From positions 12,122 through 76,121 of the forward strand of contig JADFYE010000005.1 of the NCBI GenBank assembly GCA_015233195.1: a stretch of 64,000 nt of DNA, read 5' to 3'. The notes under the pieces were generated by a model. It was not told where the DNA came from. It saw only the letters and a list, made by a program, of their open reading frames with translations, and did not search any database. The position numbers were made by a program, and so were the translations under genes. The stretch is from Candidatus Omnitrophota bacterium. GTDB taxonomy: Bacteria; Omnitrophota; Gorgyraeia; Zapsychrales; Zapsychraceae. Within the stretch, counting starts at the first letter, position 1. Every line of letters begins with the position of its first letter. Shown in pieces: positions 1-17,439 of this stretch.

Positions 1-514
1 CCGTATTCCCTGCGATCAAAGCCGGTGCCATTTTCCAGGCAGTCATGATCATAGGATAATTCCAGGGAATAACTGCCGCGATCACACCGATCGGTTCACG
101 CTCGATCAAACTTCTAACCGGTGCCGGAATATCTAATTCTTTAGAACTTAGCCATTTTTCAACGCCTGCAAAAAAATCAAATGTTTCAGCTGCAGTAGGC
201 ACATCAATTAAATTAGCATGCTTAATCGTCTTACCCACATCCGCGCATTCCAAACGCGCTAATTCAAAAGCATTATCCCGAATAAGCTGGGAGATCTTTT
301 TCAAATACTCCCCACGCTGCTGGACAGATAACTTTGACCACTCCCCATTATCAAACTGCTCACGGGCACTATTAATCGCAGACTGCATATCAATCAAAGA
401 CGCAGAAGCGACTTTAGCAAACACCTCTCCGTTAGAAGGATTGATAGCATCAAACACCTTCCCGTCAGAAGCAGGAGTTAATTGACCATTAAAATATAAA
501 TTATATACTTTCAT
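1..514 (-). CDS. Aldehyde dehydrogenase family protein, N-terminal part (gene runs off the window start)
   Basis: Absent from the ORF track because truncated. Minus-strand translation from the ATG at 512-514 reads MKVYNLYFNGQLTPASDGKVFDAINPSNGEVFAKV...EREPIGVIAAVIPWNYPMIMTAWKMAPALIAGNT, carrying the ALDH-family PWNYP and K..PAL.AGN motifs. Confidence 0.8.
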   Translation of the reverse strand, partial: MKVYNLYFNGQLTPASDGKVFDAINPSNGEVFAKVASASLIDMQSAINSAREQFDNGEWSKLSVQQRGEYLKKISQLIRDNAFELARLECADVGKTIKHANLIDVPTAAETFDFFAGVEKWLSSKELDIPAPVRSLIEREPIGVIAAVIPWNYPMIMTAWKMAPALIAGNT

Positions 515-607
515 AAAAAGCCCCTCACCCTACTCTTTCCTAAAAGGTTGAAAAAGATTTTAAAAAGTTACAAGCGTTGCGCAAAACACATTAACTTTTT
601 AAAGCCA

Positions 608-1642
608 CTATTCAACCGCCACCCTCGTCCAAAGTTCAAACACCCTCGAACACGGCGCATACCATTTAGAAATCTTCGCAAAATCCCCTTTTAAGACCAT
701 CTTCTTCTGGGTCGTAGCAACGAACGGATCCAACTCCCTCTTAAACACAGCCCGCCAAACCACCTCAGGAGCTGACGTCATAAATTCCGCGTTAGCGTTA
801 TTACCGAGATTAACAATCTTCCCCTTATCAAACGTAAAACTAAAAACTTCGCCAGTCTCATCCAACTTAACTGCCAATTCCATATTCATGTTCGTCTGAC
901 TACCAAGCTGTTTCATTTTTTCATCCGCATTTACTATATCGACAATAGCCTGCATATGCTCACGCGAAAAAAATTTCTTTTTGTCATCCTGTGCCTTTGT
1001 GCAATCATCCTGAGCGTTAACGAAGGATCTCTTTTTAGATTCTTCAGGCGCTATTGCTCCTTCAGAATGACAGCCTTGCTTAAAAACTTTAGCAATAGCT
1101 TCCGTCTTAATTGCTTCTTCCAAATTCTGGATCCAGCAAAAACAATCGAATAATTCCGGGCCGACCGCTAATACACCATGATTACGCAATACAGCCAATC
1201 CCTTACCTTTTAATTCAGCCAACACAGGTGAAATATCCTGTACGGTCGGAGAATACTGCTCAATCGCCTTAACTTCACCTAAATATAATTTCGCTTCAAA
1301 TATCCGAGGCACAAAAACCGGCTGTTCAATAAAAAAACCATTAACATACGGCGTATGCGTATGAATAATAGCTTTAACATCAGGAAAATTCTTATAGATC
1401 GCAGTATGAAGCATCTTTTCAGACGTGACTTTACCAGATTCCAAAGGATTCCCGTCATTATCACAAACCAAAAGATCTTTATCAATTAATCGTCCCAAGC
1501 AAGTTTTAGTTGCAGTTAAAATAATCCGTTTATCATCAACCCGGACGCTGATATTTCCATTCAATGCGCTCGCCAAATCCTTATCCCAAAGTAATTTACC
1601 AATCTCGATAATCTCATTTTTTAATTTTTTTATATTGTCCAT
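608..1642 (-). CDS. Class II aldolase/adducin-family protein (MtnB/Ald2-like) fused to a C-terminal SCP2 sterol-carrier domain
   Basis: The N-terminal ~200 aa carry GNISVR...HTHTPY...HGVLAVG aldolase-II motifs. A low-complexity linker follows, then a ~100-aa SCP2-like fold (ELAVKLDETGEVFSFTFDKGKIVNLGN...MVLKGDFAKISKWY). The likely real start is ATG 1640-1642 (MDNIKK), with GAGG 8 nt upstream. The ORF-track start at 1660 is a TTG. Confidence 0.75.
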   Translation of the reverse strand: MDNIKKLKNEIIEIGKLLWDKDLASALNGNISVRVDDKRIILTATKTCLGRLIDKDLLVCDNDGNPLESGKVTSEKMLHTAIYKNFPDVKAIIHTHTPYVNGFFIEQPVFVPRIFEAKLYLGEVKAIEQYSPTVQDISPVLAELKGKGLAVLRNHGVLAVGPELFDCFCWIQNLEEAIKTEAIAKVFKQGCHSEGAIAPEESKKRSFVNAQDDCTKAQDDKKKFFSREHMQAIVDIVNADEKMKQLGSQTNMNMELAVKLDETGEVFSFTFDKGKIVNLGNNANAEFMTSAPEVVWRAVFKRELDPFVATTQKKMVLKGDFAKISKWYAPCSRVFELWTRVAVE

Positions 1643-1653
1643 GATTTTAACCT

Positions 1654-2130
1654 CTAACAATTTATTAAATCATAATTTGGCACAAAAGTTTTTGTTTTCG
1701 ATTGTGCAATTTGTATATTATTAAATTTTAATAAAATACTTTTATCCACGTTAACAGCCAATGGCTTCTCTCCCTCAAAAATATAAAACGGCACATTATG
1801 CTCTTTTGCTAAAATCTGCAATATCGTACCACCAACCAAAGTTTTAAGCTGATCATTTACTTTCCCATGTCCCGATACCCAAACCTCTTTTACACAACCA
1901 TGCCCAAACAAAAACCCTGCCATATTATCCGCGATAACCGTAGGTGTTATTCCATGATGCAACAACTTCCGACACGTATGCTGACACGAAGTCAGATCCG
2001 GACGACCTTCTAAAACAAACACCTCGACAGCATCTTTTTTAAAGTGATCAAAAAAATTTTTACCAAAAAACCCGTGGAGCAAAACCACGCGTTTCTGTAA
2101 TTTTTCAACTATTGGATTGGCTAATTTCAT
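1654..2130 (-). CDS. Short eIF-2B/MtnA-family paralog (Rossmann-like C-terminal half only, catalytic motif degenerate)
   Basis: 158 aa that align to the C-terminal half of the adjacent MtnA-like protein (EGRPDLTSCQ...TVIADNMAGFLF...VWVSGHGKV...NVPFYIF versus ETRPYFQG...TLIADNAVGNVM...VIVGSDRNC...NIPFYVL). The ATG overlaps the upstream stop (ATGA). Confidence 0.5.
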   Translation of the reverse strand: MKLANPIVEKLQKRVVLLHGFFGKNFFDHFKKDAVEVFVLEGRPDLTSCQHTCRKLLHHGITPTVIADNMAGFLFGHGCVKEVWVSGHGKVNDQLKTLVGGTILQILAKEHNVPFYIFEGEKPLAVNVDKSILLKFNNIQIAQSKTKTFVPNYDLINC

Positions 2131-3104
2131 TTCCGCCCCATTTCCAAAGCAATAGCTCCGCCGGTTACTAATTCATGCGGCACCACATCAAACCCGGGAT
2201 AGAATCCCCGCACGTACCCTTTAATAGCTTTCTTACCTTCATAACGCAATAATTCTTCTTCCGGTCTAATCTCAACTGGAATATCCGCAGCACTTGCCAC
2301 TTTACTTGACGGCTGAGTTAAAACATAAAACGGAATATTAAAATGTTTTGATAATACTGCGATCTGATATGTCCCGATCTTATTCGCAAAATCACCATTA
2401 GCGCAATTACGATCTGATCCGACTATCACCTTATTAACCATTTTATTCGCCATAACATTACCTACTGCATTATCTGCGATCAATGTCACATCAGCTCCTA
2501 CCTGACCTAATTCCCAAGCAGTTAATTTTGCGCCTTGAAAATACGGACGAGTTTCGGTAGCAAAAAATTTCACTTTTTTATTTTGAGCTAAACACATACC
2601 AGCAGCCATAGCTAATTCACCGCTGACATTGCAATGAGTTAAAACTGAATCGCCGTCTTTAATCACTTCAGAAATTCTTTTAACCCGATCCAAACGACTA
2701 TATCGAACCCCCTGCAAATAACTATTAATATTCTTAACCACAAACGTTTTTAAATCTTGATGCGATTCCAACGCGACCTTTGCCCAATTCACGACGATAG
2801 ATGTTACTTCAGCAAAAGGAAACGTCGGACGGCTTTTATTCAAAGCCTCAGCGATCTGCCCGATCTTTACATAAAGATCCCGATCTGAAAAATTTTTTCC
2901 TCGTTCAATCTCGACTAAAAAAATACTCAATATCACCAAAAATTGACCAAACGCGCGCGTCTTCATTTCCTTAATTACAGACACAGCTTCGTTCGTGTTT
3001 CCAACCGGAATATACTGAACTTTTTCCGGAATAGCAGTCTCGTCCAGTACATAAAGAACATCTTTATCTAAACGACAAGGCCAAAATAAAATTGAATCTT
3101 CCAT
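2127..3104 (-). CDS. mtnA: S-methyl-5-thioribose-1-phosphate isomerase-like protein (eIF-2B alpha/beta/delta family). A ribose-1,5-bisphosphate isomerase is the alternative.
   Basis: 325 aa with the family hallmarks LTHCNVSG...ATETRPYFQGAKLTAWEL...TLIADNAVG...VIVGSDRNCANGDFANKIGTYQIAV...IPFYV. Confidence 0.7.
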   Translation of the reverse strand: MEDSILFWPCRLDKDVLYVLDETAIPEKVQYIPVGNTNEAVSVIKEMKTRAFGQFLVILSIFLVEIERGKNFSDRDLYVKIGQIAEALNKSRPTFPFAEVTSIVVNWAKVALESHQDLKTFVVKNINSYLQGVRYSRLDRVKRISEVIKDGDSVLTHCNVSGELAMAAGMCLAQNKKVKFFATETRPYFQGAKLTAWELGQVGADVTLIADNAVGNVMANKMVNKVIVGSDRNCANGDFANKIGTYQIAVLSKHFNIPFYVLTQPSSKVASAADIPVEIRPEEELLRYEGKKAIKGYVRGFYPGFDVVPHELVTGGAIALEMGRK

Positions 3105-3107
3105 AAA

Positions 3108-3857
3108 TTAAATGCCTTTAATCATATTAAACGCAATATCTATCATAGCTGCTTCAGCCATGTAATAGCTTGGATTCATAAATCCCATTTCACCTGTAAT
3201 AACATTGTCGCTGACTGCCATAATCGCAACTGCCGGGATTTTATAATGATTCGCTATCGTCAAAAATGCAGAGGTAACCATATCCGCAGCAATCGCGCCT
3301 TTTGCAACTGCACCATTTATCACATCTTTAGTTTCCCGTAATAAAGCATCCGTTGTCCAGCAAGATCCCATATGAACTGCACCGACCATTGGACCAGCTT
3401 GTTTAGCAACTTCAGCTAACTTTACTGATAAATTTTTATCTGAGAACGGTATTACATCTTTACCTGCATAATACTGTGATAGACCTTCACCGCAGATAGC
3501 ACTTGTAACAACTATCAAATCACCGACTTTAATATCTTCGCGTAAAGCACCACAGCTTCCTACGCGAATCATCGCTTTGGTCGTAGCATTACAAACTATT
3601 TCAGTCGTAATACCAGTATCCGCAGAAAAACGTCCGCCATTGATGGTCGTAACTTTCTTACCATTAAATTCGCCGGTATACATGGTATATTCCATGAAAG
3701 AAAAATTCTTGACCGGATTATTAAGCTTTTTCATGACAGCTTCCATACGTTCTTTAGGACCAGGCACGATCACATATTCCCCAATATCACCCGGACGCAA
3801 TTGCACCATTCCCATTAAATCCCGACCAGTTAAATGTATTTCACGTTTCATTGTCAT
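3108..3857 (-). CDS. Purine nucleoside / 5'-methylthioadenosine phosphorylase (PNP/UDP-1 family, DeoD-like)
   Basis: 249 aa with the VIVPGPKER...RVGSCGAL...VGDLIVV pattern of hexameric PNP. GGAG lies 6 nt upstream of the ATG. Its stop is 3 nt from the mtnA-like start. Confidence 0.75.
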   Translation of the reverse strand: MTMKREIHLTGRDLMGMVQLRPGDIGEYVIVPGPKERMEAVMKKLNNPVKNFSFMEYTMYTGEFNGKKVTTINGGRFSADTGITTEIVCNATTKAMIRVGSCGALREDIKVGDLIVVTSAICGEGLSQYYAGKDVIPFSDKNLSVKLAEVAKQAGPMVGAVHMGSCWTTDALLRETKDVINGAVAKGAIAADMVTSAFLTIANHYKIPAVAIMAVSDNVITGEMGFMNPSYYMAEAAMIDIAFNMIKGI

Positions 3858-3878
3858 ATTAATCTCCTAAATGAGCAC

Positions 3879-3948
3879 ATCACTTATGGAACAACGTGAA
3901 CATAAGTGATCAGTGCGAATTTATCCCGTTTGCAAAGCAAATCGGGAT
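3879..3948 (-). promoter_or_regulatory. Two stable hairpins in the 100-nt spacer between the acyl-CoA ligase stop and the phosphorylase gene start
   Basis: A perfect 10-bp inverted repeat, ATCACTTATG (3879-3888) and CATAAGTGAT (3901-3910), with a 12-nt loop. A second hairpin, ATCCCGTTTGC-AAA-GCAAA(T)CGGGAT, lies at 3923-3948. Confidence 0.4.
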
Positions 3949-3957
3949 TTCAACTGG

Positions 3958-5451
3958 TTATAATTTTGTTTTATCAATTTTCCCCGTTCTATTCTTCGGT
4001 AATTCTTTCCTTACTTCAAAATTATGCGGCACTTTAAAATGCGCTAAATGTTCTTTCATAAATGCCCGAAGATCCTCGATCGCAACATTCTCACCTTCTT
4101 TAAATACCACAAACGCTTTAATAGTTTCTCCCCGTAATTTATCAGGAATTCCTATAACCGCGGCTTCCGCCACACTTGGATGTTTATATAACGCCGACTC
4201 CACTTCAGGCGCCATCACCAATTGACCGCCCACCTTGATCATTTCTTTTTTCCGTCCCATGATATATAAAAATCCGTTCTCATCAAAACGACCCAGATCG
4301 CCCGTATATAAACCGTCTTTTCGTTTAATCTCTGCAGTCAACTCAGGATCTTTGTAATATTCTTTCATGATATAATCGCCTGCAATCACAATCTCACCCA
4401 CAGCGCCTTGCGGCAATTCTTTTCCCTCATCGCTCACGATCCTGATCGTCGAAAAAGGCGACGGTTTCCCCACACTCGCGATATTATCGCTATTCTTCAA
4501 AGGCGTTACTGTATTAGGCGGACACGTTTCAGTCATGCCCCATCCGTTCAACAATACCGCATTCGGACAATATTGATGAAACCTTGCTAAAATTTCTGGC
4601 GAGCTTGGCGCGCCGAATACTACCACCCAGCGCAAAGACGACAAATCAAAATTTTCAATGTGTTTCAAAGTAAGAATCGCGTTATACATAGGCGGCACAA
4701 TATGAAAACATGTTACTTTAAACTGCTGAACCAATTCCAAAAACTGCATAGGATTAAAACGATCCATCAATACCAAAGTAATCCCAAATAAAAGCATATT
4801 TTGAATATAAATTAACCCAGCGATATGGCTCAAAGGTAAGGCACAAAGTTTGATATCTTTATCCGTTAGGTCAACAAAGTATTCCATTGCCTTAGGCGAG
4901 CCGTCTAAATGTTTATATGTCAATAAAATGCCTTTAGGTTTTCCAGTTGTCCCCGACGTATACATAATAAGCGCAGGATCGGAATCTTTAATTTCCACTG
5001 ATAATGCGACAGCAGAAGATTTTGCCATTAATTCGCCGTATTTCAGCGAGCCTTCAACATTTCCATCCAGCAAAATAATTTTTTTAAGTTTCGGCAATTG
5101 CTTACATACAGCATTCAAATCAACATCTGGTCGTCCCAACGCAATCAATACCTTGGCTTCCGAGTGGCTCAAACACGAAACCAGTTCATCTTCTTTCAAC
5201 ATAAAGTCCAGCGGCACGCCAACTCCACCCAAACAAAATACAGTCAGATAACTAAACACATACTGCGGACAATTAGGCAAATAAATACCAACAGCATCGC
5301 CTTTTCCAATCCCCTGTGTTCGTAACACATTGGTAAGCCTCAAAACCTGATCTTGTAACTGCGCAAAATTAATTACCTGATCTTTAAATATCAAAGCAGG
5401 TTTGGACGCGTATTTCTTTGCTTGTGCGGTTAAAATATCATTGATTTTCAT
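3958..5451 (-). CDS. AMP-dependent acyl-CoA synthetase/ligase (long-chain-fatty-acid--CoA ligase-like)
   Basis: 497 aa with the AMP-binding motif YTSGTTGKPKG and a C-terminal GRKKEMIKVGG...LPKNRTGKIDK. Confidence 0.85.
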   Translation of the reverse strand: MKINDILTAQAKKYASKPALIFKDQVINFAQLQDQVLRLTNVLRTQGIGKGDAVGIYLPNCPQYVFSYLTVFCLGGVGVPLDFMLKEDELVSCLSHSEAKVLIALGRPDVDLNAVCKQLPKLKKIILLDGNVEGSLKYGELMAKSSAVALSVEIKDSDPALIMYTSGTTGKPKGILLTYKHLDGSPKAMEYFVDLTDKDIKLCALPLSHIAGLIYIQNMLLFGITLVLMDRFNPMQFLELVQQFKVTCFHIVPPMYNAILTLKHIENFDLSSLRWVVVFGAPSSPEILARFHQYCPNAVLLNGWGMTETCPPNTVTPLKNSDNIASVGKPSPFSTIRIVSDEGKELPQGAVGEIVIAGDYIMKEYYKDPELTAEIKRKDGLYTGDLGRFDENGFLYIMGRKKEMIKVGGQLVMAPEVESALYKHPSVAEAAVIGIPDKLRGETIKAFVVFKEGENVAIEDLRAFMKEHLAHFKVPHNFEVRKELPKNRTGKIDKTKL

Positions 5452-5492
5452 ATTAAATCCATTTTTAATATCTTAATATCTGGAGACACAAA

Positions 5493-5518
5493 ACTTAATT
5501 CAAAAAACTGAATTAAGT
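5493..5518 (-). terminator. Weak hairpin plus U-rich tract in the acyl-CoA ligase leader (attenuator-like)
   Basis: The minus-strand RNA forms ACUUAAUUC-AGUUUUUU-GAAUUAAGU followed by UUUGUGUCUCC, about 45 nt upstream of the ligase ATG. The stem is 9 bp but AU-rich. Confidence 0.3.
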
Positions 5519-5759
5519 ATCATGTCCCCGCAGTTTAAAATGAACTGTTATAAAATGTGCAGATGCAAGGCATTCCCGAGAGAATGCGGAGGCGTACTTT
5601 GTATGTACGTCGCACAAACGAACGAGGGAATAACACAGCAGATGCATATTTTAGAACAGTTCAATGTAGTAAAATTTTAATAGTTAGATTTTAATGGGTA
5701 TAATTGATAAGTCAAGAAAAAATTCCAAAAGTAAGGTAATTATATATTAATATTAAACT

Positions 5760-7061
5760 TTATCTAAAACTTAGGTCAGTAGGCGCGCGGCCCAATTCCT
5801 GCAGTAAAATTTTGGCAGATTCAATCTGAGCATCTAAAGACTCATGTTGATGCGCCCTTCCAGGATAAATTTCATATAAAGGTCGTTTTTCCAAAGGTGT
5901 TACATTAAGCATCATTGAATTAGCTCCAGATAAAAACGCCAAACGGCGCGCAGTCATATCCAAAGTTTCAAGACCAGTAGTTACTAATATTTTTACATGA
6001 GGCAATAAAAAAAATCTGGCAGATGATAGAGTATGAATTATTTCATCAACTGTAGGTGCTGGATGTTTTGCTAACGGAGTATATGGATGAGGCAAAAACG
6101 GTCCCATACTTAACATTTCAACATTCAGCTCCCCTGCTAATTCTATATCACTACTTATATCAGCATGAGTCTGCCCAGGCAAACCTATCAAAGACCCAGT
6201 AATTATTAAATACCCCAATTCATTCGCAGTTTTCAGATCTTGTAATCGGTCTTCAAACTTTGAACCAGGATGCATCTTAGAATATAAATCTGAATTTGAA
6301 GTTTCAAACCGCAACAATAACCCCCTAGCACCTGCAGCGTATAAACGTTTTAAACCATCCGTACCAACTTCGCCAAAACTAATAAAAATTAAAACTCCAA
6401 AACGTTTTTTTATCTCAGCAACAAGGTCAATAAGCTCATCAATCGGACGACCACGGTCTTCACCGCTTTGCAATACCAGCGCTTTAAACCCATAAACCTC
6501 AACCGCAATTCGCACAGACTCCAATATCTCGTCTTTAGACATTCGATATCTGGTTAAACTAGTATTCAATGCCGAAATCCCACAATAATGACAAACCTGG
6601 TCACACTCATTGCCAATTTCGATTATCCCATGCACGCAGCAAGAATTACCGTGATACTGATGTCTCAAATGATGTGCCGCGTTTTTAATAAACTCACGTT
6701 CACCAGCATCTTTCGCAGATAATAAATATTCCAATTCCTCTCGCAATATCCGTCCACCTGCAGCAACTTTATCATACATATCCCGGACTTTTGTATATTT
6801 CGCTCCAGCCCAAGGCATTTGTTTTACGCTAGCATCGTCAATATCTTTTAACTCAAAAAAAAGATCTTTCCATGTCTCTAGAGTTGTTTCAGCCTCTTTC
6901 TGACTTACCCGAGTTATAACAAAACCACCTTGTGCATATACATAATCGCCCACGCTTAATCCAGTTAACTCATTAATGGCTTTCTTCTCTTCGCCAAAAT
7001 AATCAACCAAAGCAAATTTACCTTCAAATGCTTTAACTTTTCCAGGAATAGCGTAACACAT
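5760..7061 (-). CDS. Fusion protein: N-terminal HypC/HupF-like [NiFe] hydrogenase maturation domain plus radical SAM domain (HydE/BioB/PylB-like)
   Basis: The N-terminus MCYAIPGKVKAF...VGDYVYAQGGFVITRVSQKEAETTLETWKDL is HypC-like, including the essential Cys2. Then come a CxxxCxxC cluster (CDQVCHYCG), LVLQSGED, ETSNSDLYSKMHPGSKFEDRL and GSLIGLPGQT, as in HydE/BioB-type radical SAM enzymes. GGAG lies 7 nt upstream of the ATG. Confidence 0.75.
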   Translation of the reverse strand: MCYAIPGKVKAFEGKFALVDYFGEEKKAINELTGLSVGDYVYAQGGFVITRVSQKEAETTLETWKDLFFELKDIDDASVKQMPWAGAKYTKVRDMYDKVAAGGRILREELEYLLSAKDAGEREFIKNAAHHLRHQYHGNSCCVHGIIEIGNECDQVCHYCGISALNTSLTRYRMSKDEILESVRIAVEVYGFKALVLQSGEDRGRPIDELIDLVAEIKKRFGVLIFISFGEVGTDGLKRLYAAGARGLLLRFETSNSDLYSKMHPGSKFEDRLQDLKTANELGYLIITGSLIGLPGQTHADISSDIELAGELNVEMLSMGPFLPHPYTPLAKHPAPTVDEIIHTLSSARFFLLPHVKILVTTGLETLDMTARRLAFLSGANSMMLNVTPLEKRPLYEIYPGRAHQHESLDAQIESAKILLQELGRAPTDLSFR

Positions 7062-7078
7062 TTAATGCTCCAGAATTA

Positions 7079-7414
7079 TTATACGATCTCTGTGATAAAA
7101 AATTCTTTTCCAGAAGGGAGTAGCGTGCCAAGCTTACGGCACTGAGGACACTGAAGATCAGAACCTTTTTTAGGATATTGAATATTACACGTCTTGCATT
7201 CTAGCAAAGCAGGCTTGAATTTCACTTCTAAAACAGTATTAGATAACACAGTATCAGCTATCATTTGTTCCCAATATAATCTGATACATCCCTCATCAAA
7301 ACCTAGCAATTCTCCTACGATCAAAACCGCTTTTTTAGGGTGTGGAATATTTTTATCTTTGACCGCTGCTAAAGCTTCAGCTACGACTTTCTGGACTTGA
7401 TGAACCTCATGCAT
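7079..7414 (-). CDS. hypA: Hydrogenase nickel-insertion protein HypA
   Basis: Starts MHEVHQV... and has two CxxC pairs (CKTC...CPQC). The ATG overlaps the echF stop by 8 nt. Confidence 0.8.
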   Translation of the reverse strand: MHEVHQVQKVVAEALAAVKDKNIPHPKKAVLIVGELLGFDEGCIRLYWEQMIADTVLSNTVLEVKFKPALLECKTCNIQYPKKGSDLQCPQCRKLGTLLPSGKEFFITEIV

Positions 7415-7742
7415 GGAACACGTCCTTATACCGTTTTTCAGAACAAGCAGCATATTTAGTATCCAGCACTAAACATTTTTTCGGACAAATTTCTACACAA
7501 GCATTACAGGATACACAACGCAGCCGGTCGATCTCCCAGCCTTTTTGTTCTTTAGTTACTACTATCGCTGCTGTCGGACATTTACGTTGACATAAGCCGC
7601 AGAAAATACATTTATCAATCTCGATTAAAACTTTACCACGAGTGCCAACAAAATATTTTTTCTCAACAAAAGGATATCTTTCAGTAACTGGACGACTGAA
7701 AAGATTGGATAACACTGATTTTGCCATTACTAATAATTTCAT
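7407..7742 (-). CDS. echF: Ech hydrogenase subunit F (2x[4Fe-4S] ferredoxin, NuoI-like)
   Basis: 111 aa with two CxxCxxCxxxCP motifs (CIFCGLCQRKCP, CVSCNACVEICP). Confidence 0.8.
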   Translation of the reverse strand: MKLLVMAKSVLSNLFSRPVTERYPFVEKKYFVGTRGKVLIEIDKCIFCGLCQRKCPTAAIVVTKEQKGWEIDRLRCVSCNACVEICPKKCLVLDTKYAACSEKRYKDVFHA

Positions 7743-7745
7743 ATA

Positions 7746-8825
7746 TTACCTCTCCGCACAGCTGATACAAGGATCAATAGTCAATACTAATATAGGAACA
7801 TCCGCCAACTGACATCCTTTCAGAATTTCCAACAAAGGCGTAATATTAGCGAATGTCGGAGTCCTGACTCTAAGCCTTTGCAAAAATTTAGTGCCATTAG
7901 CTTTAGCATAATAAATAACTTCACCGCGCGGCTGTTCAGAACGCGCAAAAAATTCTCCGTTCGGGAAACCAGTAACCTTAGCCTCAATTACGCCTTCTTT
8001 CATTTGTTGGACACATTTTTCAATTATATCAATTGATTGCGCCAACTCACGAATACGAACTTTACAACGGCTATAACAATCTCCCTCCGTCTCAACTATA
8101 GGCGCAAACCCAATCTTGCCATAAGCAGCATAGCCCATCATACGGATATCCATTGCTACTCCGCTGGCTCTAAGCATTGGACCTACCGCACCTAACGCCT
8201 TAGCATTTTCAGTAGTTAAAATTCCAACGCCCTGGGTACGATGTTTTACTGTGGTATCATCTAAAAATACCATACCCAGATCATTAATCTTTTTTTGGTA
8301 AACCCGTAATTTTTTAACAATCTCTTCTAATTTAGCCGGCGCAATATCCCGACGCACGCCTCCGACTTTAGCCGAACCAAAAATAACCCGACCCCCAGTG
8401 GTCTCTTCAATTATATCCAAAATATATTCGCGGATTTTCCAAGATTCCATGAAAAGACTTTCAAAACCAAACCCGTCAGCAGTCAAACCTAACCAAAGTA
8501 AATGACTATGTATACGGGAAAGCTCAGACCAGATAGTACGTAAATATTGCGCGCGTTCTGGCACTTCAATCTTCATCAACTCTTCCACTGCCATACAATA
8601 AGTAAGACCATGGATAAAACTGCATATGCCGCAGATACGTTCTGCCACATATGTATATTCTTGAAAATCTTTTTTCTCAACCAATTTTTCCAACCCACGA
8701 TGAATAAATCCTATGGACGGTATAGCTTCAACCACTTTCTCATCTTCCAAAACCAAATCCAAATGTATTGGCTCTGGAAGTACTGGATGCTGAGGACCAA
8801 AAGGAATGATCGTCCGTTTACTCAT
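7746..8825 (-). CDS. echE: Group 4 [NiFe] hydrogenase large subunit (EchE, NuoD-like)
   Basis: The N-terminal RICGICSFIHGL and C-terminal DPCISCAER motifs are the Ni-Fe ligand sites. The start was taken at MSKRTIIPFGPQHP, avoiding a 70-nt overlap with echD. Confidence 0.85.
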   Translation of the reverse strand: MSKRTIIPFGPQHPVLPEPIHLDLVLEDEKVVEAIPSIGFIHRGLEKLVEKKDFQEYTYVAERICGICSFIHGLTYCMAVEELMKIEVPERAQYLRTIWSELSRIHSHLLWLGLTADGFGFESLFMESWKIREYILDIIEETTGGRVIFGSAKVGGVRRDIAPAKLEEIVKKLRVYQKKINDLGMVFLDDTTVKHRTQGVGILTTENAKALGAVGPMLRASGVAMDIRMMGYAAYGKIGFAPIVETEGDCYSRCKVRIRELAQSIDIIEKCVQQMKEGVIEAKVTGFPNGEFFARSEQPRGEVIYYAKANGTKFLQRLRVRTPTFANITPLLEILKGCQLADVPILVLTIDPCISCAER

Positions 8826-9189
8826 GGCTCGTCTCCTTTGGTTTCTCGTCTTGATTGAACGCGTGTTTGATTCCTGTACGATAAAATTCACCTTTATAAT
8901 CCACTGCTATATTCTCCACTTTAACATCAAACAAATCATGAATTTCATTTTCATAAAGAAAAGCACTCAAATATACAGCGCTGATACTTGGCACTGGAGT
9001 TGACGTATCTTTAAGAATTATTTTAAAACTTTGATACACATAATCTTTATCAAAAGAATATTGTAACTCCAAACATTCAGGCAATTTGGTGCAACAAATC
9101 TGTACTAAACGCCAGCCTTCATATTTTAATTCACGAACTTTTGCCAAAAGGCTATCCAAAGTTATCTCCACTATAGTTTGCTGTATCAT
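8818..9189 (-). CDS. echD: Ech hydrogenase subunit D (NuoC-like 30-kDa subunit)
   Basis: 123 aa similar to NuoC, placed between the small and large subunit genes with 4-8 nt overlaps. Confidence 0.7.
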   Translation of the reverse strand: MIQQTIVEITLDSLLAKVRELKYEGWRLVQICCTKLPECLELQYSFDKDYVYQSFKIILKDTSTPVPSISAVYLSAFLYENEIHDLFDVKVENIAVDYKGEFYRTGIKHAFNQDEKPKETSHE

Positions 9190-9629
9190 TTTTTCACCTC
9201 TTCAGCCAGGCTTGCCGCCTTTTTTTTCTCTAAAATTCCCAATGCTTTTACTACCGCATCAATAAGTGCTTCTGGTCTTATTGGACACGAAGGAGCATAA
9301 ACATCAACTGGAACAACTTTATCTGCCCCGCCCAAAACATTATAACATTCCCTAAATACCCCGCCTGAAGTTGCGCATATACCAACTGCTATCACTACTT
9401 TAGGATTCGGCATCTGGTTATAAATATTTTGTACTACTGGTTTGTTTTGCTCATTTATCGACCCAGTCAATAAAAGTATATCCGCATGTTTTGGGTTACC
9501 CGTATTAATTACCCCAAAACGTTCTACGTCATACCTAGGCATCAAGGATGCTAAAACTTCAATATCACAGCCATTACAACTTGATCCATCATAATGAATT
9601 ATCCACGGTGATTTTGATAAAACACTCAT
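9186..9629 (-). CDS. echC: Group 4 [NiFe] hydrogenase small subunit (EchC, NuoB-like)
   Basis: Carries the proximal-cluster motifs CNGCD, GICATSGG and APSCPIRPE. Confidence 0.85.
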   Translation of the reverse strand: MSVLSKSPWIIHYDGSSCNGCDIEVLASLMPRYDVERFGVINTGNPKHADILLLTGSINEQNKPVVQNIYNQMPNPKVVIAVGICATSGGVFRECYNVLGGADKVVPVDVYAPSCPIRPEALIDAVVKALGILEKKKAASLAEEVKK

Positions 9630-9630
9630 A

Positions 9631-10500
9631 TTAACCCCTTATCATAAGATAAATAATATTCGCTCCGCCTAAAACTAAAGCCACTAACCAAGAACTTGCA
9701 ACCAAAGCTTGCCATCTTACTCTGGCAGTAGCATTATCAATTAACATTTGAGATAAAAATACTAACAATGACACGCTTAAACCCACCCAAACATTCGAAG
9801 CAAAAAATAAATAAACAATAGCTAAAACAAAAACATTTTCATACCAATGCGCCATTTCAATAATCGCTAAAGTCTTACCTGAAAACTCAGTAGTAATCCC
9901 TTTTACTAATTCTTGGTGAGCATGATGAGAAGTGGAAAGATCAAACGGAGATTTACGAAACTTAATTGGTAAAATAAAAAAGAAAGCTAGAAAAACGCCA
10001 GGCAAAACCATAATTAAAGATTTTGGATAATGAATTATATCTGTGATTTGAAAACTTTTAGTAACCATGTACATGCCAACTGCAACCATCATTAAAGCTG
10101 GTTCATATGACATCATTTGCAAAGCTTCCCTATGCGCGCCAATAACGCTATAAGGTGAACTGGCTTTAAAACCACCTAACACAAAAAATACTCCGGCTAA
10201 AGTTAATGCAAATATGATAAGTAAAAGATCTCCGCCTGCAAAAAATAATGCTCCAGTAAATACTGTCAGAACAAAAAAGAATTCTATATACAAAGTTTGT
10301 GAAGGACGCACCACCAAAGTTTCCTTTTTAAATAATTTAAGCACATCATAAAAAGGCTGTAATATCGGAGGTCCGATCCGATTCTGCATACGTGCTGTTA
10401 CTCTTCGATCCAGACCAGCTAATAACCCGCCTACGATTGGTGCTAAAACTAAATATGAAAGTAATATCTTAATTGACATATTACGCTCCCCCCAAAACAA
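9631..10500 (-). CDS. echB: Ech hydrogenase membrane subunit B (NuoH-like)
   Basis: 289 aa, polytopic and hydrophobic, in the operon position of EchB. Confidence 0.7.
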   Translation of the reverse strand: MFWGERNMSIKILLSYLVLAPIVGGLLAGLDRRVTARMQNRIGPPILQPFYDVLKLFKKETLVVRPSQTLYIEFFFVLTVFTGALFFAGGDLLLIIFALTLAGVFFVLGGFKASSPYSVIGAHREALQMMSYEPALMMVAVGMYMVTKSFQITDIIHYPKSLIMVLPGVFLAFFFILPIKFRKSPFDLSTSHHAHQELVKGITTEFSGKTLAIIEMAHWYENVFVLAIVYLFFASNVWVGLSVSLLVFLSQMLIDNATARVRWQALVASSWLVALVLGGANIIYLMIRG

Positions 10501-12373
10501 ATAATCCCAAGACGAACAATACGCCTAAGATCACGCCCAAATACATGAGCCGTTCCTCATTAAAATAATCATTTAAATAATAATTTTTCATTTCCATATC
10601 TTTAACTTCTAAAGCAGCTTGATATTGACCCTTGTGCCCTACATTTGCCCCAGCTAAATACGGATCAGATAATTTAACCCCGCTTCCATAATCTAAAAAT
10701 GTCAATGGGAACAAACATACCATTAAAAGCATAATACCCATAATAACAATATTTCCTTTACTTAATACCATCACGTTTCCGTATATCGCTGCAACATATG
10801 GATCAATTAAATTATGTGCCACCCAGGCAAAAAATCCGCATATAAAAACCGTTAATACTGACAATGTTCCCATTGCAATCCATTGACCAGTAGGTATACC
10901 TTTTTCAATATTCTCATATGGTTTATCTACTATTAAAACTTTGCCTAACCACTTCACCCAGAAAAATAAAGTAGCTGCACTACCAAAAATCAAAAATACC
11001 GCTGAAAAAGGACTAAAATCTATCATCGCCCGTAATACTGCCCATTTACTTATAAGCATACCAAACGGCGCTAAAAACATACCTGCAATTCCAATCTGCA
11101 ACATAACTGAAACCTTTGGCATACGCACAATCAAACCTGTCATATCTTCAACCTGACGGCTTCCGGTTTCATGCTCAATACCGCCCACGCATAAAAACAA
11201 AAGCCCCTTAGCAACCGCATGGAAAATTATCAATAAAATACCTGCCCAAACCGCTTCGTATGTTCCAACGCCCGCGCATAAAATTATTAAACCTAAGTTA
11301 GCTATAGTAGAATATGCCAATATTTTTTTAGCGTCATTTTGACTAATACAAATAAATGATCCAATCAAAAATGTAATTAACCCGACCATAGCAACAAACA
11401 AACCTAAAGTTGTACCCTGTAATTGATGAGCAAAACGTAATACCAAATAAACACCCGCCTTTACCATCGTACTAGAGTGAAGCAATGCTGAAACAGGCGT
11501 AGGCGCTACCATTGCCCCGACCAGCCATGAAGAACAAGGTAATTGTGCTGATTTAGTTAACCCAGCAAAACATAACAAAGCTACAGGCAATAAAACTAAA
11601 GTACCAGGTAAACTCATCATCTCATTTAACGCAATAGTGTGATGGGTCTTAAACAGCACGATTATTCCGATCAAAAAAGCTAAACCACCCAACAAATTCC
11701 ATCGTAACGCTAAAAATGAATTTGCAATGGATTGGTCATCTTGTTTATAACCAATCAAAATAAATGAGCAAACTGTTGTTATCTCCCAGAAAAATAATAA
11801 CCACATCAAATTATTAGAGAAGCAAACCCCAAACATCGCAGAAAGGAAAATAAAAATGAGACCTAGAAACAGCGGTCTTCTATCTTTTACTTCTTCATGA
11901 TGAGCATGAAAATCTTCCATATATCCTACTGCATACATGGCTATCAAACTTCCGATCACGCCGATAATCAAGCCCATGATCACTGAAAATAGATCAATAA
12001 ACAAATTGTTCTCTACATGCGCTGAATGACCAGCCCCAAAATGGAACCATAATAAAAGTCCGGTTTGAACAGCAATTAAAATTGAAACAATCATATCTTT
12101 ACGTCTTAACGCCAAAAATAAAATATAAGCCGCAAGCAAAACCTCAATAATCAACATAAAAGGCTCAATCCAACTAAAATGAGCAGGAACAAAGATTGGT
12201 GAACCTTTAAGCCCAATAGCTAAAAGTCCAATCGACACCACAATTAAAACTATAACCCCAGGATAAATAAATTTCTTAAATAAAGACGACCAACGGTTGA
12301 CCAAAGCTAAAGCGCCTATTAATAAAGGGAAAAGCATTAAGAAATACAGCAAGAACGGAACGTGGTTTTGCAT
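10481..12373 (-). CDS. echA: Ech hydrogenase membrane subunit A (NuoL/MnhA-like antiporter subunit)
   Basis: 630 aa with about 16 predicted helices and NuoL-type motifs. First gene of the echABCDEF operon. Confidence 0.75.
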   Translation of the reverse strand: MQNHVPFLLYFLMLFPLLIGALALVNRWSSLFKKFIYPGVIVLIVVSIGLLAIGLKGSPIFVPAHFSWIEPFMLIIEVLLAAYILFLALRRKDMIVSILIAVQTGLLLWFHFGAGHSAHVENNLFIDLFSVIMGLIIGVIGSLIAMYAVGYMEDFHAHHEEVKDRRPLFLGLIFIFLSAMFGVCFSNNLMWLLFFWEITTVCSFILIGYKQDDQSIANSFLALRWNLLGGLAFLIGIIVLFKTHHTIALNEMMSLPGTLVLLPVALLCFAGLTKSAQLPCSSWLVGAMVAPTPVSALLHSSTMVKAGVYLVLRFAHQLQGTTLGLFVAMVGLITFLIGSFICISQNDAKKILAYSTIANLGLIILCAGVGTYEAVWAGILLIIFHAVAKGLLFLCVGGIEHETGSRQVEDMTGLIVRMPKVSVMLQIGIAGMFLAPFGMLISKWAVLRAMIDFSPFSAVFLIFGSAATLFFWVKWLGKVLIVDKPYENIEKGIPTGQWIAMGTLSVLTVFICGFFAWVAHNLIDPYVAAIYGNVMVLSKGNIVIMGIMLLMVCLFPLTFLDYGSGVKLSDPYLAGANVGHKGQYQAALEVKDMEMKNYYLNDYFNEERLMYLGVILGVLFVLGLFVLGGA

Positions 12374-12442: not shown

Positions 12443-12569
12443 AGCTTTGAAGTTTATATTCTACAAAAAATATCAAAAGACGCAATAACAAAATTGTAAA
12501 TTAATAAACTTCCTTAGTTTAACCAGAACTAACTAATTTTAACAGCAAAAAAGCTTAAACTTCAAAACT
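12443..12569. repeat. Inverted-repeat pair flanking the ech operon promoter region and overlapping the padR stop
   Basis: AAGCTTTGAAGTTTA (12442-12456) and AAGCTTAAACTTCAAAAC (12551-12568) lie about 110 bp apart. The shared core TGAAGTTTA / TAAACTTCA matches 13 of 14 positions in reverse complement. Confidence 0.4.
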
Positions 12570-13073
12570 CTTAAGTAATCTGACTAAAGAATTAATCTCC
12601 GCCTCCACCAAATCAAGATCATGTTGAAGGATTATCTGCAAATGTTGACGAACATCTAAAGCCGAACGATTTAACTTGTTTAATTCTGTTCTAATCCGCT
12701 TAAGAACCAAAATCCTGCCCCGCAATTTTCGTTTAGCAGTCTTTTTATCAATATATTGCAGAAAATATAAGGATAAATCAAAATGAAAATATGGTCGTTC
12801 AACAGTTAAAAAACTTTCAGTTGCCAAACGGTCAAAAACTTTAGCGCCTTGTGAAGTCAGGCTATAAACATATTTTTCCGGGAATTTTCCTGAACGGTCA
12901 GTTTCCTTTTCAATCAAACCGTATTTTTCCATTTGCTTCAATGGATAATAAATGGATTTGATCTTTAACCCTAATAACGGTCCAAGCTCCTCTTCAATTA
13001 TACGCTTGATTTCATAACCGTGTTTAGGTCCATCCTTTAGCAACCCTAAAAATAAAAATTCATTTTCAATCAT
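12555..13073 (-). CDS. PadR-family transcriptional regulator
   Basis: FLFLGLLKDGPKHGYEIKRIIEEELG is a PadR winged-helix signature. Confidence 0.8.
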   Translation of the reverse strand: MIENEFLFLGLLKDGPKHGYEIKRIIEEELGPLLGLKIKSIYYPLKQMEKYGLIEKETDRSGKFPEKYVYSLTSQGAKVFDRLATESFLTVERPYFHFDLSLYFLQYIDKKTAKRKLRGRILVLKRIRTELNKLNRSALDVRQHLQIILQHDLDLVEAEINSLVRLLKSFEV

Positions 13074-13075
13074 AA

Positions 13076-14110
13076 TTATAAGATCAATTGCTGAGATCGT
13101 TCCGTGTAATCAATTATTTTTGCCATCATATCAATGGTTTCAACCGGATATTTGCCAACTGCGGTCTCACCTGAAAGCATTACCGCATCCGCACCGTCTA
13201 AAATTGCATTAGCCACATCAGATACTTCAGCCCGGGTTGGTCGATTATTTTCAGTCATAGTTTCAAGCATCTGAGTCGCAACTATCACAAATTTTTTATT
13301 CCGATTACATCTGCGTATAATATATTTCTGCATAATCGGAACTTGATATATCGGCAAACTTACCCCCATATCTCCTCTTGCAACCATTATCCCGTCACAA
13401 GCATCAATAATATCATCCACATTACGGATACCATCCAAATTTTCAATCTTTGATATTATTTTACAATCAGGCAATATTGGTCTAACTTTTTTTACCACAT
13501 GCAATATGTCTGCTGCATTGCGTACAAAAGATTGAGCGATCATATCAACTTTGTTTGCAATACCAAATTTAATGTCTTTTTTATCTTTTGCAGTAAACGT
13601 CTCCTGTTTCAATTTAAGACCAGGGATGTTTATACCTTTGCGGGATTTAAGGGAACCACCTTCACAAACTAAAACTTTTATCCGCTGTGAGTCTCGTTCC
13701 TTAACTTTCAAACAAATCCGTCCATCGTCAATAAAAATATTTGATCCAACTGGTATATCTTTGGCCGAACCCGTATAATCAAAAAAAATCTCTCCGGAGT
13801 TTTTAACTTTATCATTAGTCAAATAAACAATTGCGCCCAATTTTAGCTCAATTGGTTTATCCAAATGTCCAATACGAATCCGATAACCTTCAAGGTCCTG
13901 TAATATCTTTATTTGAAATTTATATCTGCCATTGATCTTTCGTACCAAATCAATCGCACCTTGATGCTGCTCATACGAACCATGTGAAAAATTTAAACGT
14001 ACAATATTAAGTCCCTTACGCGCCATCCGTACCAAAACATCTTCTGATAATGATGCTGGTCCTAAAGTAGCTATGATATTAGTATCCCTGGTTTGAACCT
14101 TTGCTTTCAT
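13076..14110 (-). CDS. pyk: Pyruvate kinase, short form (A and B domains only, no C-terminal allosteric domain)
   Basis: [10 protein letters not shown]...RLNFSHGS...MVARGDMG motifs in 344 aa. Typical pyruvate kinases are about 470 aa. Confidence 0.8.
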
Positions 14111-14119
14111 GGTATATCC

Positions 14120-14608
14120 CTATTTTACAGACGTATATTGCTTATCCAACAAACTAAAAATCATTTGTGCAGCCTTATCCCGGGCACGAGTGCTTAATGA
14201 AGTGACTTGGATTTTTATTTCATTTGTACGCGCAAATTTTGTAAAAAACACGCCTACTTCAGTAGTGTCAACTTGCCCAGGCACATCCATAAAAACTATT
14301 ATTCCCCTTAATCTGTCATCAATAAAAACCGAATACGGTCCATAAACTTTCTTATTGGGATCACTTTTATCTTTTAATAAAGGGTTATTCGATTTCACAT
14401 CTAATTTTAATTCTTGAGCAACTTGGGTGAGTGTTAAAACCGTATCATAACAATCGTCATAATTACAAGTATACACTTTAGACAAAGCCTTAAGATGTGC
14501 AGGGGATAAATGTTCAGTTGAAGTTCCCCAAACTTTACGTCCCGATTCCTGAACAAAAGAACAACCCGCCGCAAATACACATAACCCAATTAATAATATT
14601 TTTTTCAT
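14120..14608 (-). CDS. Lipoprotein, function unknown
   Basis: Signal peptide with the lipobox LIGLCVFAAGCS. Confidence 0.6.
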   Translation of the reverse strand: MKKILLIGLCVFAAGCSFVQESGRKVWGTSTEHLSPAHLKALSKVYTCNYDDCYDTVLTLTQVAQELKLDVKSNNPLLKDKSDPNKKVYGPYSVFIDDRLRGIIVFMDVPGQVDTTEVGVFFTKFARTNEIKIQVTSLSTRARDKAAQMIFSLLDKQYTSVK

Positions 14609-14663
14609 ATCATCTCCTTTAAAAGGGCACGAAGTATCGTGCCCCTACAACCTTGTCCACTTA

Positions 14664-15131: not shown

Positions 15132-15137
15132 AAAGAG

Positions 15138-17418: not shown

Positions 17419-17439
17419 ATATACCTTCTTTTTGAATTC

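Follow-up and report, generated by a model that had tools for sequence, protein, structure and literature searches.

Which pathway would be served by an operon in which a nucleoside phosphorylase, an MtnA-like isomerase and an aldolase of class II stand together with an acyl-CoA ligase and an aldehyde dehydrogenase (ALDH)? The question is raised by the first 5.5 kb of a 64,000-nucleotide stretch of the genome of a Candidatus Omnitrophota bacterium (assembly GCA_015233195.1, contig JADFYE010000005.1, positions 12,122 to 76,121; hereafter the window). Six genes lie there on the minus strand, in transcription order an AMP-forming ligase, an NP-I phosphorylase, an MtnA-like isomerase, a short IF-2B-family protein, an aldolase joined to an SCP2 domain, and ALDH. 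An earlier, sequence-only reading had seen in them a dihydroxyacetone phosphate (DHAP) shunt with an oxidative fate for the aldehyde product. DHAP-shunt chemistry with an oxidative, thioester-forming end fitted our results best; the substrate, direction, products and SCP2 ligand are those that we infer. From the earlier reading, the enzyme set of the shunt and a plausible oxidative end were retained, and neither a sugar-catabolic setting of the aldolase nor a grouping of the isomerase with ribose-1,5-bisphosphate (R15P) isomerases was found. Its claims of novelty and its placing of the aldolase in the MtnB/Ald2 family needed change, and a mere housekeeping role now seems less likely.

A conserved six-gene transcription unit

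For the comparison, one genome per GTDB species was scanned, which gave 145 relatives, and the best 80 of these were taken as loci. All 80 are Omnitrophota metagenome-assembled genomes, some of which carry the label "uncultured Planctomycetales". With further loci from the wider aldolase-SCP2 family (L081-L092), the neighbour survey comprised 92 loci in all. Gene order was read by tblastn with the window proteins, domains and families were assigned with Pfam and NCBIfam models, and relatives of solved structure were compared by bit score. ALDH itself is cut by the window edge, and the genes downstream of it in the source genome were deduced from relatives.

All open reading frames (ORFs) of the earlier reading were present on the minus strand at the places it gave, and Pfam agreed with every family that it had assigned (Table 1). 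Its two junctions were found as described: 3 nt separate the phosphorylase stop from the MtnA-like ATG, and the MtnA-like stop overlaps the short IF-2B start as ATGA. The aldolase ORF (608-1660) is also real, but the gene most likely starts at the ATG at 1642 rather than at the ORF end, since this ATG agrees with the start in NCBI model P0001 and with a Met that is invariant in the family alignment; it lies 11 nt past the short IF-2B stop. The aldolase shows 100% identity to a protein from a Candidatus Omnitrophica metagenome-assembled genome. The tight packing claimed for the operon applies to the four middle genes, whereas in the source genome the outer gaps are wide, with 100 nt between ligase and phosphorylase and 93 nt between aldolase and ALDH.

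In the relatives, all six genes are tightly spaced, with median intergenic gaps of -14 to 21 nt. An upstream PadR gene is parted from the ligase by a median of 132 nt, always by more than 30 nt, and ALDH from its next neighbour by a median of 97 nt. By tblastn, practically all loci with sufficient flank have the genes in the order ligase, phosphorylase, isomerase, short IF-2B, aldolase-SCP2, ALDH, and all six occur in this order in 56 of the 60 evaluable species-level Omnitrophota loci (ALDH adjoins the aldolase in 56/60), so that the neighbourhood survey called for by the earlier reading returned a set conserved in its order. Such a recurrence is not due to chance. Furthermore, the genes flanking the set differ between loci while the set stays intact. 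We considered whether the ligase and ALDH are mere passengers of synteny, and rejected this because variable flanks surround a constant six, the gaps are tight and an operator lies upstream of the ligase. The six genes are therefore one regulated transcription unit, and the synteny, the tight median gaps and the conserved promoter/operator make the ligase and ALDH true members of it.

The promoter/operator of the window sits 214 nt upstream of the ligase start. Of 65 loci, 61 have its consensus, CTTGACAAA-N9-TnTAnTAAAATCnAACTAnTAAAATTTTACTAnT, no more than 400 nt upstream of the ligase, and only two further copies occur elsewhere in those loci. The element is laid out as CTTGACAAA-N9-TnTAnTAAAATC-nAACTAnTAAAATTTTACTAnT, which reads as a -35/-10 pair followed by a 20-bp palindrome; the operator palindrome is also written ACTAGTAAAATTTTACTAGT. 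A scan of the window for terminator and promoter consensus sequences was not significant overall, and only this promoter, which is backed by cross-species conservation, was retained. Of the 66 loci with an ORF before the ligase, 45 have a gene for a PadR-family regulator as its direct upstream neighbour, and the regulator gene is present in 45 of the 52 loci whose upstream flank measures 6 kb or more; in the source genome, a block of hydrogenase genes parts it from the operon. Transcription would thus start at the conserved promoter with its palindromic operator, and the neighbouring PadR would be the probable control. It is probably a repressor of the operon that acts at the operator, a pairing of regulator and site that we infer.

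Table 1. Features of the window, with positions counted from its first nucleotide
Feature	Position	Strand	Remarks
ALDH, N-terminal fragment, 171 aa	2-514	-	ATG at 514-512; last operon gene, runs off the window
Class II aldolase-family protein with SCP2, 344 aa	608-1642 (ORF 608-1660)	-	Aldolase_II and SCP2 matches
Short IF-2B-family protein, 158 aa	1654-2130	-	Pfam IF-2B, C-domain only
MtnA-like aldose-1-phosphate/ketose-1-phosphate isomerase, 325 aa	2127-3104	-	Pfam IF-2B, TIGR00524
NP-I (hexameric DeoD/Udp-type) nucleoside phosphorylase, 249 aa	3108-3857	-	Pfam PNP_UDP_1
AMP-forming acyl-CoA (or acyl-carrier) ligase, FadD/4CL type, 497 aa	3958-5451	-	First operon gene; AMP-binding and AMP-binding_C
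Operon promoter/operator	5665-5715	-	-35 TTGACT 5715-5710; -10 TAAAAT 5693-5688; palindrome ACTATTAAAATTTTACTACA 5684-5665
HypC/HupF-HydE-like protein, 433 aa	5760-7061	-	N-terminal HypC/HupF, then HydE-like radical-SAM and BATS
[NiFe] group-4-type hydrogenase and maturation genes	5760-12373	-	Between PadR and the promoter/operator
PadR-family regulator	12555-13073	-	Pfam PadR 4e-13
Conserved upstream synteny	12555-19625	-	Ends with PadR
Pyruvate-kinase homolog, 344 aa	13076-14110	-	Pfam PK barrel only (residues 8-326); no C-terminal PK domain reported

Enzymes and predicted steps

The phosphorylase would remove the base from an adenosine-type nucleoside with a 5'-deoxy-5'-X group to give 5-X-ribose-1-phosphate. 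The isomerase would convert this to 5-X-ribulose-1-phosphate, together with the dead IF-2B domain, which would act as structural subunit or adaptor, and the metal-dependent class II aldolase would cleave the product to DHAP and the aldehyde X-CH2-CHO. ALDH would then oxidise X-CH2-CHO to X-CH2-COOH, and the FadD-type ligase would turn the acid into a thioester. Overall, this would be DHAP-shunt chemistry followed by the oxidative step of the fluoroacetate pathway and an activation step. Since the ligase and ALDH belong to the same operon, the fate from aldehyde to acid to thioester is plausible.

The DHAP shunt and the related disposal of 5-deoxyribose are known to use MtnP, or MtnN with MtnK, followed by MtnA and Ald2, or DrdK-DrdI-DrdA in Bacillus thuringiensis (PMC6079011, PMC10986504). 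As in these systems, an enzyme for base removal is encoded here in a conserved operon with an isomerase of the MtnA family and a class II aldolase that depends on metal, and DHAP and an aldehyde are the expected products, in agreement with the earlier reading. However, the phosphorylase is of the NP-I DeoD/Udp type instead of MtnP or a kinase, the aldolase is of another clade and bears SCP2, an extra dead IF-2B domain goes with the isomerase in split or fused form, and ALDH and the AMP-ligase are integral parts of an operon linked to B12-radical-SAM and ketosynthase/chain-length-factor (KS/CLF) genes. The shunt idea would thereby be extended by an oxidative, thioester-forming end built into the operon and by a lipid-carrier domain tethered to the aldolase.

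The clustered phosphorylase gene encodes a member of Pfam PNP_UDP_1 (2e-28), which scored about equally against the Udp and DeoD models (about 92 bits, under both cutoffs) and belongs to a separate NP-I subfamily. The phosphate- and base-binding residues R37, R98, S101 and D170 are kept across 73 members. The position of the templates' N-terminal His is Met in 70 of the 73, and the 'EME' motif is 'DMV' in all of them. In DeoD and Udp of Escherichia coli, the N-terminal His contacts the ribose 5'-OH and the second Glu of EME contacts the 2'/3'-diol. Both changes would fit a substrate that has no 5'-OH.

The isomerase matched Pfam IF-2B (1e-49) and, with 190.6 bits, exceeded the cutoff of TIGR00524 (185.85). 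It reached 206-215 bits against the NCBIfam MtnA models, compared with 114.8 bits (cutoff 314) against the R15P isomerase model TIGR00511. It passed only the general eIF-2B_rel cutoff and missed the MtnA equivalog cutoffs (206 versus 279). Its best solved relatives are the MtnA-type structures 1T5O, 2YVK and 1T9K (144-147 bits), whereas the R15P isomerase structures scored 84-94 bits. An R15P isomerase would have spoken against the shunt; the protein groups with MtnA by both measures (215 versus 115 bits for the models and 147 versus 94 bits for the structures). As in MtnA/DrdI-type isomerases, the catalytic Cys (THCN) and Asp (GSDR) are kept. The loop past the catalytic Cys is about 8 residues shorter than in the solved MtnA structures, and the motif HCN(V/I)SGE is common to the isomerases of all module members.

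The short IF-2B protein matched Pfam IF-2B (8e-12) over profile positions 130-213 only and is a member of a family of 150-190-aa proteins. Throughout this family, the catalytic Cys of 'THCN' is replaced by an invariant Gly ('LLHG') and the Asp motif is lost; the degenerate motif noted earlier, 'VWVSGHGKV' in place of the expected 'VIVGSDR', was seen again. The motifs EGRP and (I/T)ADNMAGFLF are invariant. The protein diverges faster than its neighbours (about 38% versus about 60% identity), and its dN/dS of 0.07-0.28 denotes purifying selection. A pseudogene was considered and rejected on account of this ratio and of the conserved family.

The short protein had been taken for a truncated paralog. 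Instead, it represents, as a separate protein, a domain that other phyla have fused to the MtnA C-terminus. In the loci of Methylomirabilota, Binatia and "Deltaproteobacteria", the isomerase has about 505 aa, and its extra C-terminal 165 residues are homologous to the short IF-2B protein by alignment, BLASTP (2e-11) and hhalign (probability 98.4%). Since the domain is split here and fused to the isomerase elsewhere, which is classical evidence of this kind, both proteins should act together. Moreover, at locus L085 the short IF-2B gene adjoins aldolase-SCP2 where a full isomerase is absent, and for this reason the protein may bridge isomerase and aldolase. As a Rossmann-like C-domain devoid of the catalytic Cys and Asp, it probably serves as an adaptor or as a partner that is itself non-catalytic. 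The alpha, beta and delta subunits of eIF2B, which are inactive MtnA relatives, are likewise non-catalytic, and the short protein also keeps part of the ligand-binding motifs; it differs from them as a C-domain of only about 160 aa that is bacterial and coupled or fused to an active MtnA-type enzyme. With the dead domain, fused or split, the MtnA/eIF2B family would offer a clear case of an enzyme that has a pseudoenzyme as its partner.

The aldolase domain (about 1103-1615) matched Pfam Aldolase_II (7e-35) and is joined through a disordered linker (about 992-1063) to the SCP2 domain (611-988), whose Pfam match was just under the cutoff (4e-4, 21.0 versus 21.3 bits). The protein retains the three His ligands of the metal, the Glu and the GN-S loop that binds phosphate, as do even members that share only 27-40% identity. 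The C-terminal domain shows the SCP2 alpha/beta fold with a GK-x-K-x-G-D-type motif at its C-terminus. Within Omnitrophota, SCP2 is the best-conserved part of the protein, and the block DPFVATTQKKMxL(R/K)GDFAxISKWYAPC is the counterpart of the C-terminal motif usual for SCP2. Genes for fucose or other sugars beside the aldolase would have pointed to another function. No such genes, and no sugar isomerase, kinase or transporter of L-fuculose/L-rhamnulose catabolism, were among the neighbours in any of the 92 loci.

The fusion, presented earlier as novel, belongs to a large though uncharacterised family. A search with the SCP2 domain alone among 1.8 billion representatives returned 69 matches, nearly all of them aldolase+SCP2 proteins of 320-340 aa, and a profile built from distant members found more than 2,800 aldolase-SCP2 proteins in several phyla, some of them named Methylomirabilota, Binatia or Deltaproteobacteria. 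SCP2 folds are also appended to enzymes in MFE-2/SCPx, at the C-terminus of alkylsulfatases and in UbiJ/UbiT, usually for holding or delivering a hydrophobic ligand, but our literature search found none described with a class II aldolase. The same search returned no description of this module in Omnitrophota or of the split or fused dead IF-2B domain. One metagenome protein on a 3.4-kb contig (P0275, 694 aa) combines Radical_SAM_N2, B12-binding, a truncated radical-SAM core, a truncated aldolase and SCP2. Since both middle domains are truncated, it may be an assembly or gene-call chimera and was not used as evidence of fusion.

The ALDH fragment matched the betaine-, phenylacetaldehyde- and acetaldehyde-dehydrogenase families of NCBIfam. 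A full-length ortholog (L001:11005-12507) matched Pfam Aldedh with 5e-165 and has ALDH1/2/9-type enzymes as its best solved relatives. By these matches, ALDH is of the ordinary NAD(P)-dependent, acid-forming type. The ligase matched Pfam AMP-binding (9e-89), with AMP-binding_C also found. Its closest NCBIfam model is the long-chain-fatty-acid-CoA ligase PRK06187 (441.7 bits, cutoff 476), and its best solved relatives are FadD5, feruloyl-CoA synthetase, 4CL and FadD13; it is not an Acs-type acetate ligase. Ligase orthologs (35-53% identity) occur in Methylomirabilota-type loci and at L091.

The oxidative route had been presented as a departure from the known reductive one, but there is a precedent for it. 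Streptomyces cattleya and Nocardia brasiliensis have a fluorometabolite pathway in which FlA and FlB are followed by an isomerase, an aldolase and fluoroacetaldehyde dehydrogenase (PMC3999930). The fluoroacetate branch, like the steps proposed here, leads from a 5'-X-5'-deoxyadenosine through phosphorylase, isomerase, aldolase and NAD-dependent ALDH to X-CH2-COOH, and it demonstrates that an oxidative fate exists and can serve biosynthesis. Its fl genes are scattered, whereas here one operon holds the genes, ligase included. Neither the conserved neighbours with Pfam annotation nor the gene tables of L081-L092 contained a SAM_HAT (fluorinase/chlorinase) gene.

Genomic context and the likely role

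In the main Omnitrophota type, ALDH is followed by genes for a B12-radical-SAM enzyme, a DUF2621-like 95-aa protein, an SRPBCC protein, an ApbA-like reductase, two ketosynthases (KS), an acyl carrier protein (ACP), a PF04199 cyclase and a second SRPBCC protein, sometimes with a SnoaL-like protein; L001:12821-20596 and L058 (complete chromosome OY759724.1) are examples. Where the downstream flank measures 8 kb or more (48 loci), a ketosynthase was found downstream in all 48 and the B12-radical-SAM gene in 41. Cys-His-His is intact in the first KS, and its positions are taken by Arg, Gly and Asn in the second; since all three residues are lost from the second, the two form a KSα/KSβ pair. KSα with KSβ/CLF, ACP, two SRPBCC proteins, the PF04199 cyclase and the SnoaL-like protein are what is expected of a type II polyketide synthase (PKS). 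The first KS also passed the FabF subfamily cutoff, and a fatty-acid-like product is therefore also possible. By its gene content, the cluster after ALDH is predicted to be of a type-II-PKS/fatty acid synthase (FAS)-like kind that is conserved across the phylum. Uncharacterised KS-CLF pairs have been catalogued in Candidatus Omnitrophica (PMC10132072). The B12-radical-SAM genes are orthologous (48-58% identity) in three different arrangements, and the enzyme is nearest to BchE/HpnJ and AprD4, with low scores.

Outside the phylum, the core of phosphorylase, isomerase, aldolase-SCP2 and ligase recurs in Methylomirabilota, Binatia and 'Deltaproteobacteria'. The module is a pathway variant conserved across one phylum and present in several others, and neither aldolase-SCP2 nor the short IF-2B protein is unique to the source genome. 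In the Methylomirabilota-type loci (L081-L084, L089, L090 and L092), the order is MarR, Fe-S/CCG protein, phosphorylase, fused isomerase, aldolase-SCP2 and AMP-ligase; L089 is cut by its contig start, and nothing is readable upstream of its phosphorylase. Downstream stand a small protein of no known family after the ligase (L081-L083, L089, L092) and a Sfp-type phosphopantetheinyl transferase (PPTase; L081-L083, L090). Aldehyde-oxidase/xanthine-dehydrogenase-type genes lie within 3-5 kb at L083 and L092, and the same position at L086, where the module is represented only by aldolase-SCP2 and the ligase, holds Fer2 and an unannotated 660-aa gene.

At L091, the ligase is followed by the B12-radical-SAM gene inside the operon, then by phosphorylase, isomerase, short IF-2B, aldolase-SCP2, ALDH, an MMPL/HAE3 transporter, DUF1329 and DUF1302. 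At L088, two KS genes, a B12-radical-SAM gene, ACP, cyclase, SRPBCC, MFS, SDR, an unknown gene and an amidohydrolase precede phosphorylase, isomerase, aldolase-SCP2, ALDH and a PlsC-like acyltransferase. Acid-forming ALDH directly follows the aldolase in Omnitrophota, at L088 and at L091. Since ALDH directly follows the aldolase, or aldehyde-oxidase-type genes lie nearby as at L083 and L092, an aldehyde product of the aldolase is implied.

Two of these proteins deserve mention. The small protein after the AMP-ligase (L081:12619-12978, L083:12667-13035, L086:12205-12516) is conserved, has 103-122 aa and shows the core ENRNWIE-FFGGDLMHTRTIDL...EEIPHKTTVYEHPRTMI; no Pfam family matches it, and neither the Omnitrophota loci nor the window contain a homolog. 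It was not called a carrier protein, as a Ser motif for phosphopantetheine attachment is not obvious in it. The Fe-S/CCG protein, which lies directly upstream of the phosphorylase, is HdrD/TfrB-like and has about 405 aa with Fer4 and two CCG domains (L081:6323-7546; also L083, L084, L090 and L092); it may replace the missing ALDH, or may point to thiol/disulfide chemistry.

Since the module travels with an orthologous B12-radical-SAM gene and a KSα/KSβ-ACP-cyclase set, its most likely role would be to clear 5'-deoxyadenosine, and methylthioadenosine, from a radical-SAM/KS pathway and to return the carbon as DHAP and as a thioester of acetyl type, which would be usable by the ketosynthase system. 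We consider this role to have an even chance of being right. The operon lies within a larger conserved cluster and is repeatedly linked to B12-radical-SAM and type-II-PKS-like genes, which argues against simple housekeeping salvage. The links to these genes, to PPTase or to a lipid exporter may shift the likely role toward biosynthesis, and such repeated associations suggest that S-adenosylmethionine (SAM) by-product chemistry is wired into a biosynthetic pathway. The operon is likely important for Omnitrophota biology, because it is kept in nearly every genome of this large, uncultured, probably host-dependent phylum.

Several results weigh against this clearance of 5'-deoxyadenosine by DHAP-shunt chemistry. 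The phosphorylase matched no NCBIfam MtnP model, and its specificity is not readable from sequence. The aldolase had been assigned to the MtnB/Ald2 family; the class II family, the metal ligands and the Glu stood, but it is not close to the shunt aldolase. It scored 32 bits against DrdA (6BTD) and 60 bits against Streptococcus pneumoniae FucA (4C24), which is 53% identical to DrdA (PMC6079011), and lies outside this characterised DrdA/FucA (Ald2) clade. It reached no NCBIfam cutoff, and the FucA, OtnC, MtnB and archaeal "aldolase" models are about equally distant: 34-92 bits against FucA models (cutoffs 250-400), and 59-67 bits against MtnB models (cutoffs 137 and 226), in the N-terminal half only. 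Its best solved relative is the uncharacterised Aquifex protein aq_1979 (83 bits). An Rfam search of window positions 1-8000 with E up to 1 found no riboswitch or other known RNA, and hence no SAM-related signal. In the Methylomirabilota-type loci, the ALDH gene and the radical-SAM gene are both missing, and L085 and L086 have aldolase-SCP2 where the phosphorylase or a full isomerase is absent. Finally, a tethered SCP2, a FadD/4CL-type ligase, PadR/MarR regulators and the MMPL/HAE3 exporter of L091 are not needed for acetaldehyde or methylthioacetaldehyde, and they hint at a hydrophobic ligand.

If the ligand is hydrophobic, the module may be a biosynthetic feeder that acts on a large 5' substituent. 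A radical-SAM enzyme would attach a lipid or polyketide to C5' of adenosine, as HpnH does with its intermediate in adenosylhopane formation, and the module would trim the adduct to DHAP and R-CH2-CHO, then to the acid and the thioester, so that two ribose carbons are added to R while SCP2 holds R. The SCP2 fold on its disordered tether, the ligase type, the regulators and the Met and DMV changes in the phosphorylase all agree with such a feeder, as do the B12-radical-SAM gene inside the L091 operon with its export genes right after ALDH, and the KSα/KSβ, ACP, cyclases and PlsC-like acyltransferase around the L088 module. However, adenosyl transfer by a class B (B12-binding) radical-SAM enzyme would be needed, and we know of no such enzyme that performs it; the one here only resembles BchE/HpnJ and AprD4 at low scores. 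The likeness of the phosphorylase to HpnG is weak (38 bits), the Methylomirabilota-type loci have no radical-SAM gene, and the cost in SAM would be very high. On balance we regard the feeder as unlikely. A lipid- or polyketide-building scheme that has no precedent would go one step further: the radical-SAM enzyme would join 5'-deoxyadenosyl to a hydrophobic intermediate, the adduct would be cut, and the two ribose carbons would be retained as the aldehyde, oxidised, activated and passed to KSα/KSβ-ACP. If true, SAM would be a two-carbon donor and DHAP a by-product, but we hold this to be distinctly unlikely.

The remaining explanations concern the reaction of the aldolase itself, the substrate and the direction. 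The superfamily also holds dehydratases, epimerases and decarboxylases, the MtnB, OtnC and FucA models scored similarly low (59-92 bits), the nearest solved relative is uncharacterised, and the L081-type protein aligned over its full length with the MtnB model (68 bits). The protein could therefore be an MtnB-like dehydratase, a decarboxylase or an epimerase, and the cluster a variant of anaerobic methionine salvage or an unrelated sugar-phosphate pathway. In canonical methionine salvage, too, the enzyme after the MtnA-type isomerase belongs to the class II aldolase/adducin superfamily. However, ALDH follows here, right after the enzyme in most loci and in need of an aldehyde, the full-length matches of the window protein were better to aldolase-type models than to MtnB, whose two cutoffs it missed, and no enolase-phosphatase, dioxygenase or RuBisCO-like protein (MtnC or MtnW/X, MtnD) was among the neighbours in the 92 loci. 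A non-aldolase is thus quite improbable. General nucleoside or ribose catabolism would run from an ordinary nucleoside to ribose-1-phosphate, through ribulose-1-phosphate to DHAP and glycolaldehyde, and on to glycolate and glycolyl-CoA, and would be the bacterial counterpart of the non-carboxylating pentose-bisphosphate route of haloarchaea. Omnitrophota, which probably depend on hosts, could scavenge nucleosides, the phosphorylase resembles DeoD/Udp and not MtnP, and the aldolase matched the haloarchaeal ribulose-1-phosphate aldolase model weakly (44 bits for the window protein, 72 bits for L081). The archaeal AMP/pentose-bisphosphate pathways also start with nucleoside phosphorolysis followed by an IF-2B-family isomerase, and in haloarchaea a class II aldolase gives DHAP. 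Nevertheless, the isomerase here groups with MtnA and not with R15P isomerases, the phosphorylase family has Met for the N-terminal His and Val for the second Glu of 'EME', and no ribose-1-phosphate or other kinase, ribulose-1,5-bisphosphate phosphatase or other phosphatase, RuBisCO or transporter was found in the loci. Since such catabolism would also leave the links to SCP2, radical-SAM and ketosynthase unexplained, we consider it highly improbable. The operon might also run in the synthetic direction, with a fatty or polyketide-derived aldehyde and DHAP condensed, isomerised and joined to a base to give a 5'-modified nucleoside or sugar-lipid. The aldolase, isomerase and phosphorylase reactions are all reversible, as shown for DrdA (PMC6079011), and the module is associated with ACP/ketosynthase and PPTase genes. 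Against this stand an ALDH of the irreversible, acid-forming type and the absence of a reductase domain that would turn the ligase product into an aldehyde, and the ligase as the first gene fits either direction equally; we hardly credit synthesis at all.

Hydrogenase genes and upstream synteny

The hydrogenase genes of Table 1 were seen only in the source genome among 81 loci compared, and the block therefore looks like an insertion into a conserved synteny. Its HypC/HupF-HydE-like protein, in which a chaperone domain of [NiFe]-hydrogenases is fused to the HydE-like part, scored 231 bits against the HydE model, just below the cutoff (254.6), and would by these domains be an unusual mix of [NiFe] and [FeFe] maturation modules.

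The upstream synteny is conserved in many Omnitrophota, including L006, L016, L020 and others, all on one strand. It begins with a 4-alpha-glucanotransferase, an unknown 204-aa protein, an NAD epimerase and an unknown protein of about 450 aa, and continues with a CBS pair, a hemerythrin-like protein, an unknown 162-aa protein, the 344-aa pyruvate-kinase barrel protein and PadR. The pyruvate-kinase homolog stands directly upstream of PadR in 15 loci.

Among the listed ORFs of at least 120 aa between 3958 and 63743, 50 of 52 are on the minus strand, and the two plus-strand ORFs (4850-5251 and 45680-46072) are nested in longer minus-strand ones. The GC skew was negative (-0.10 to -0.35) across all 12 kb profiled.

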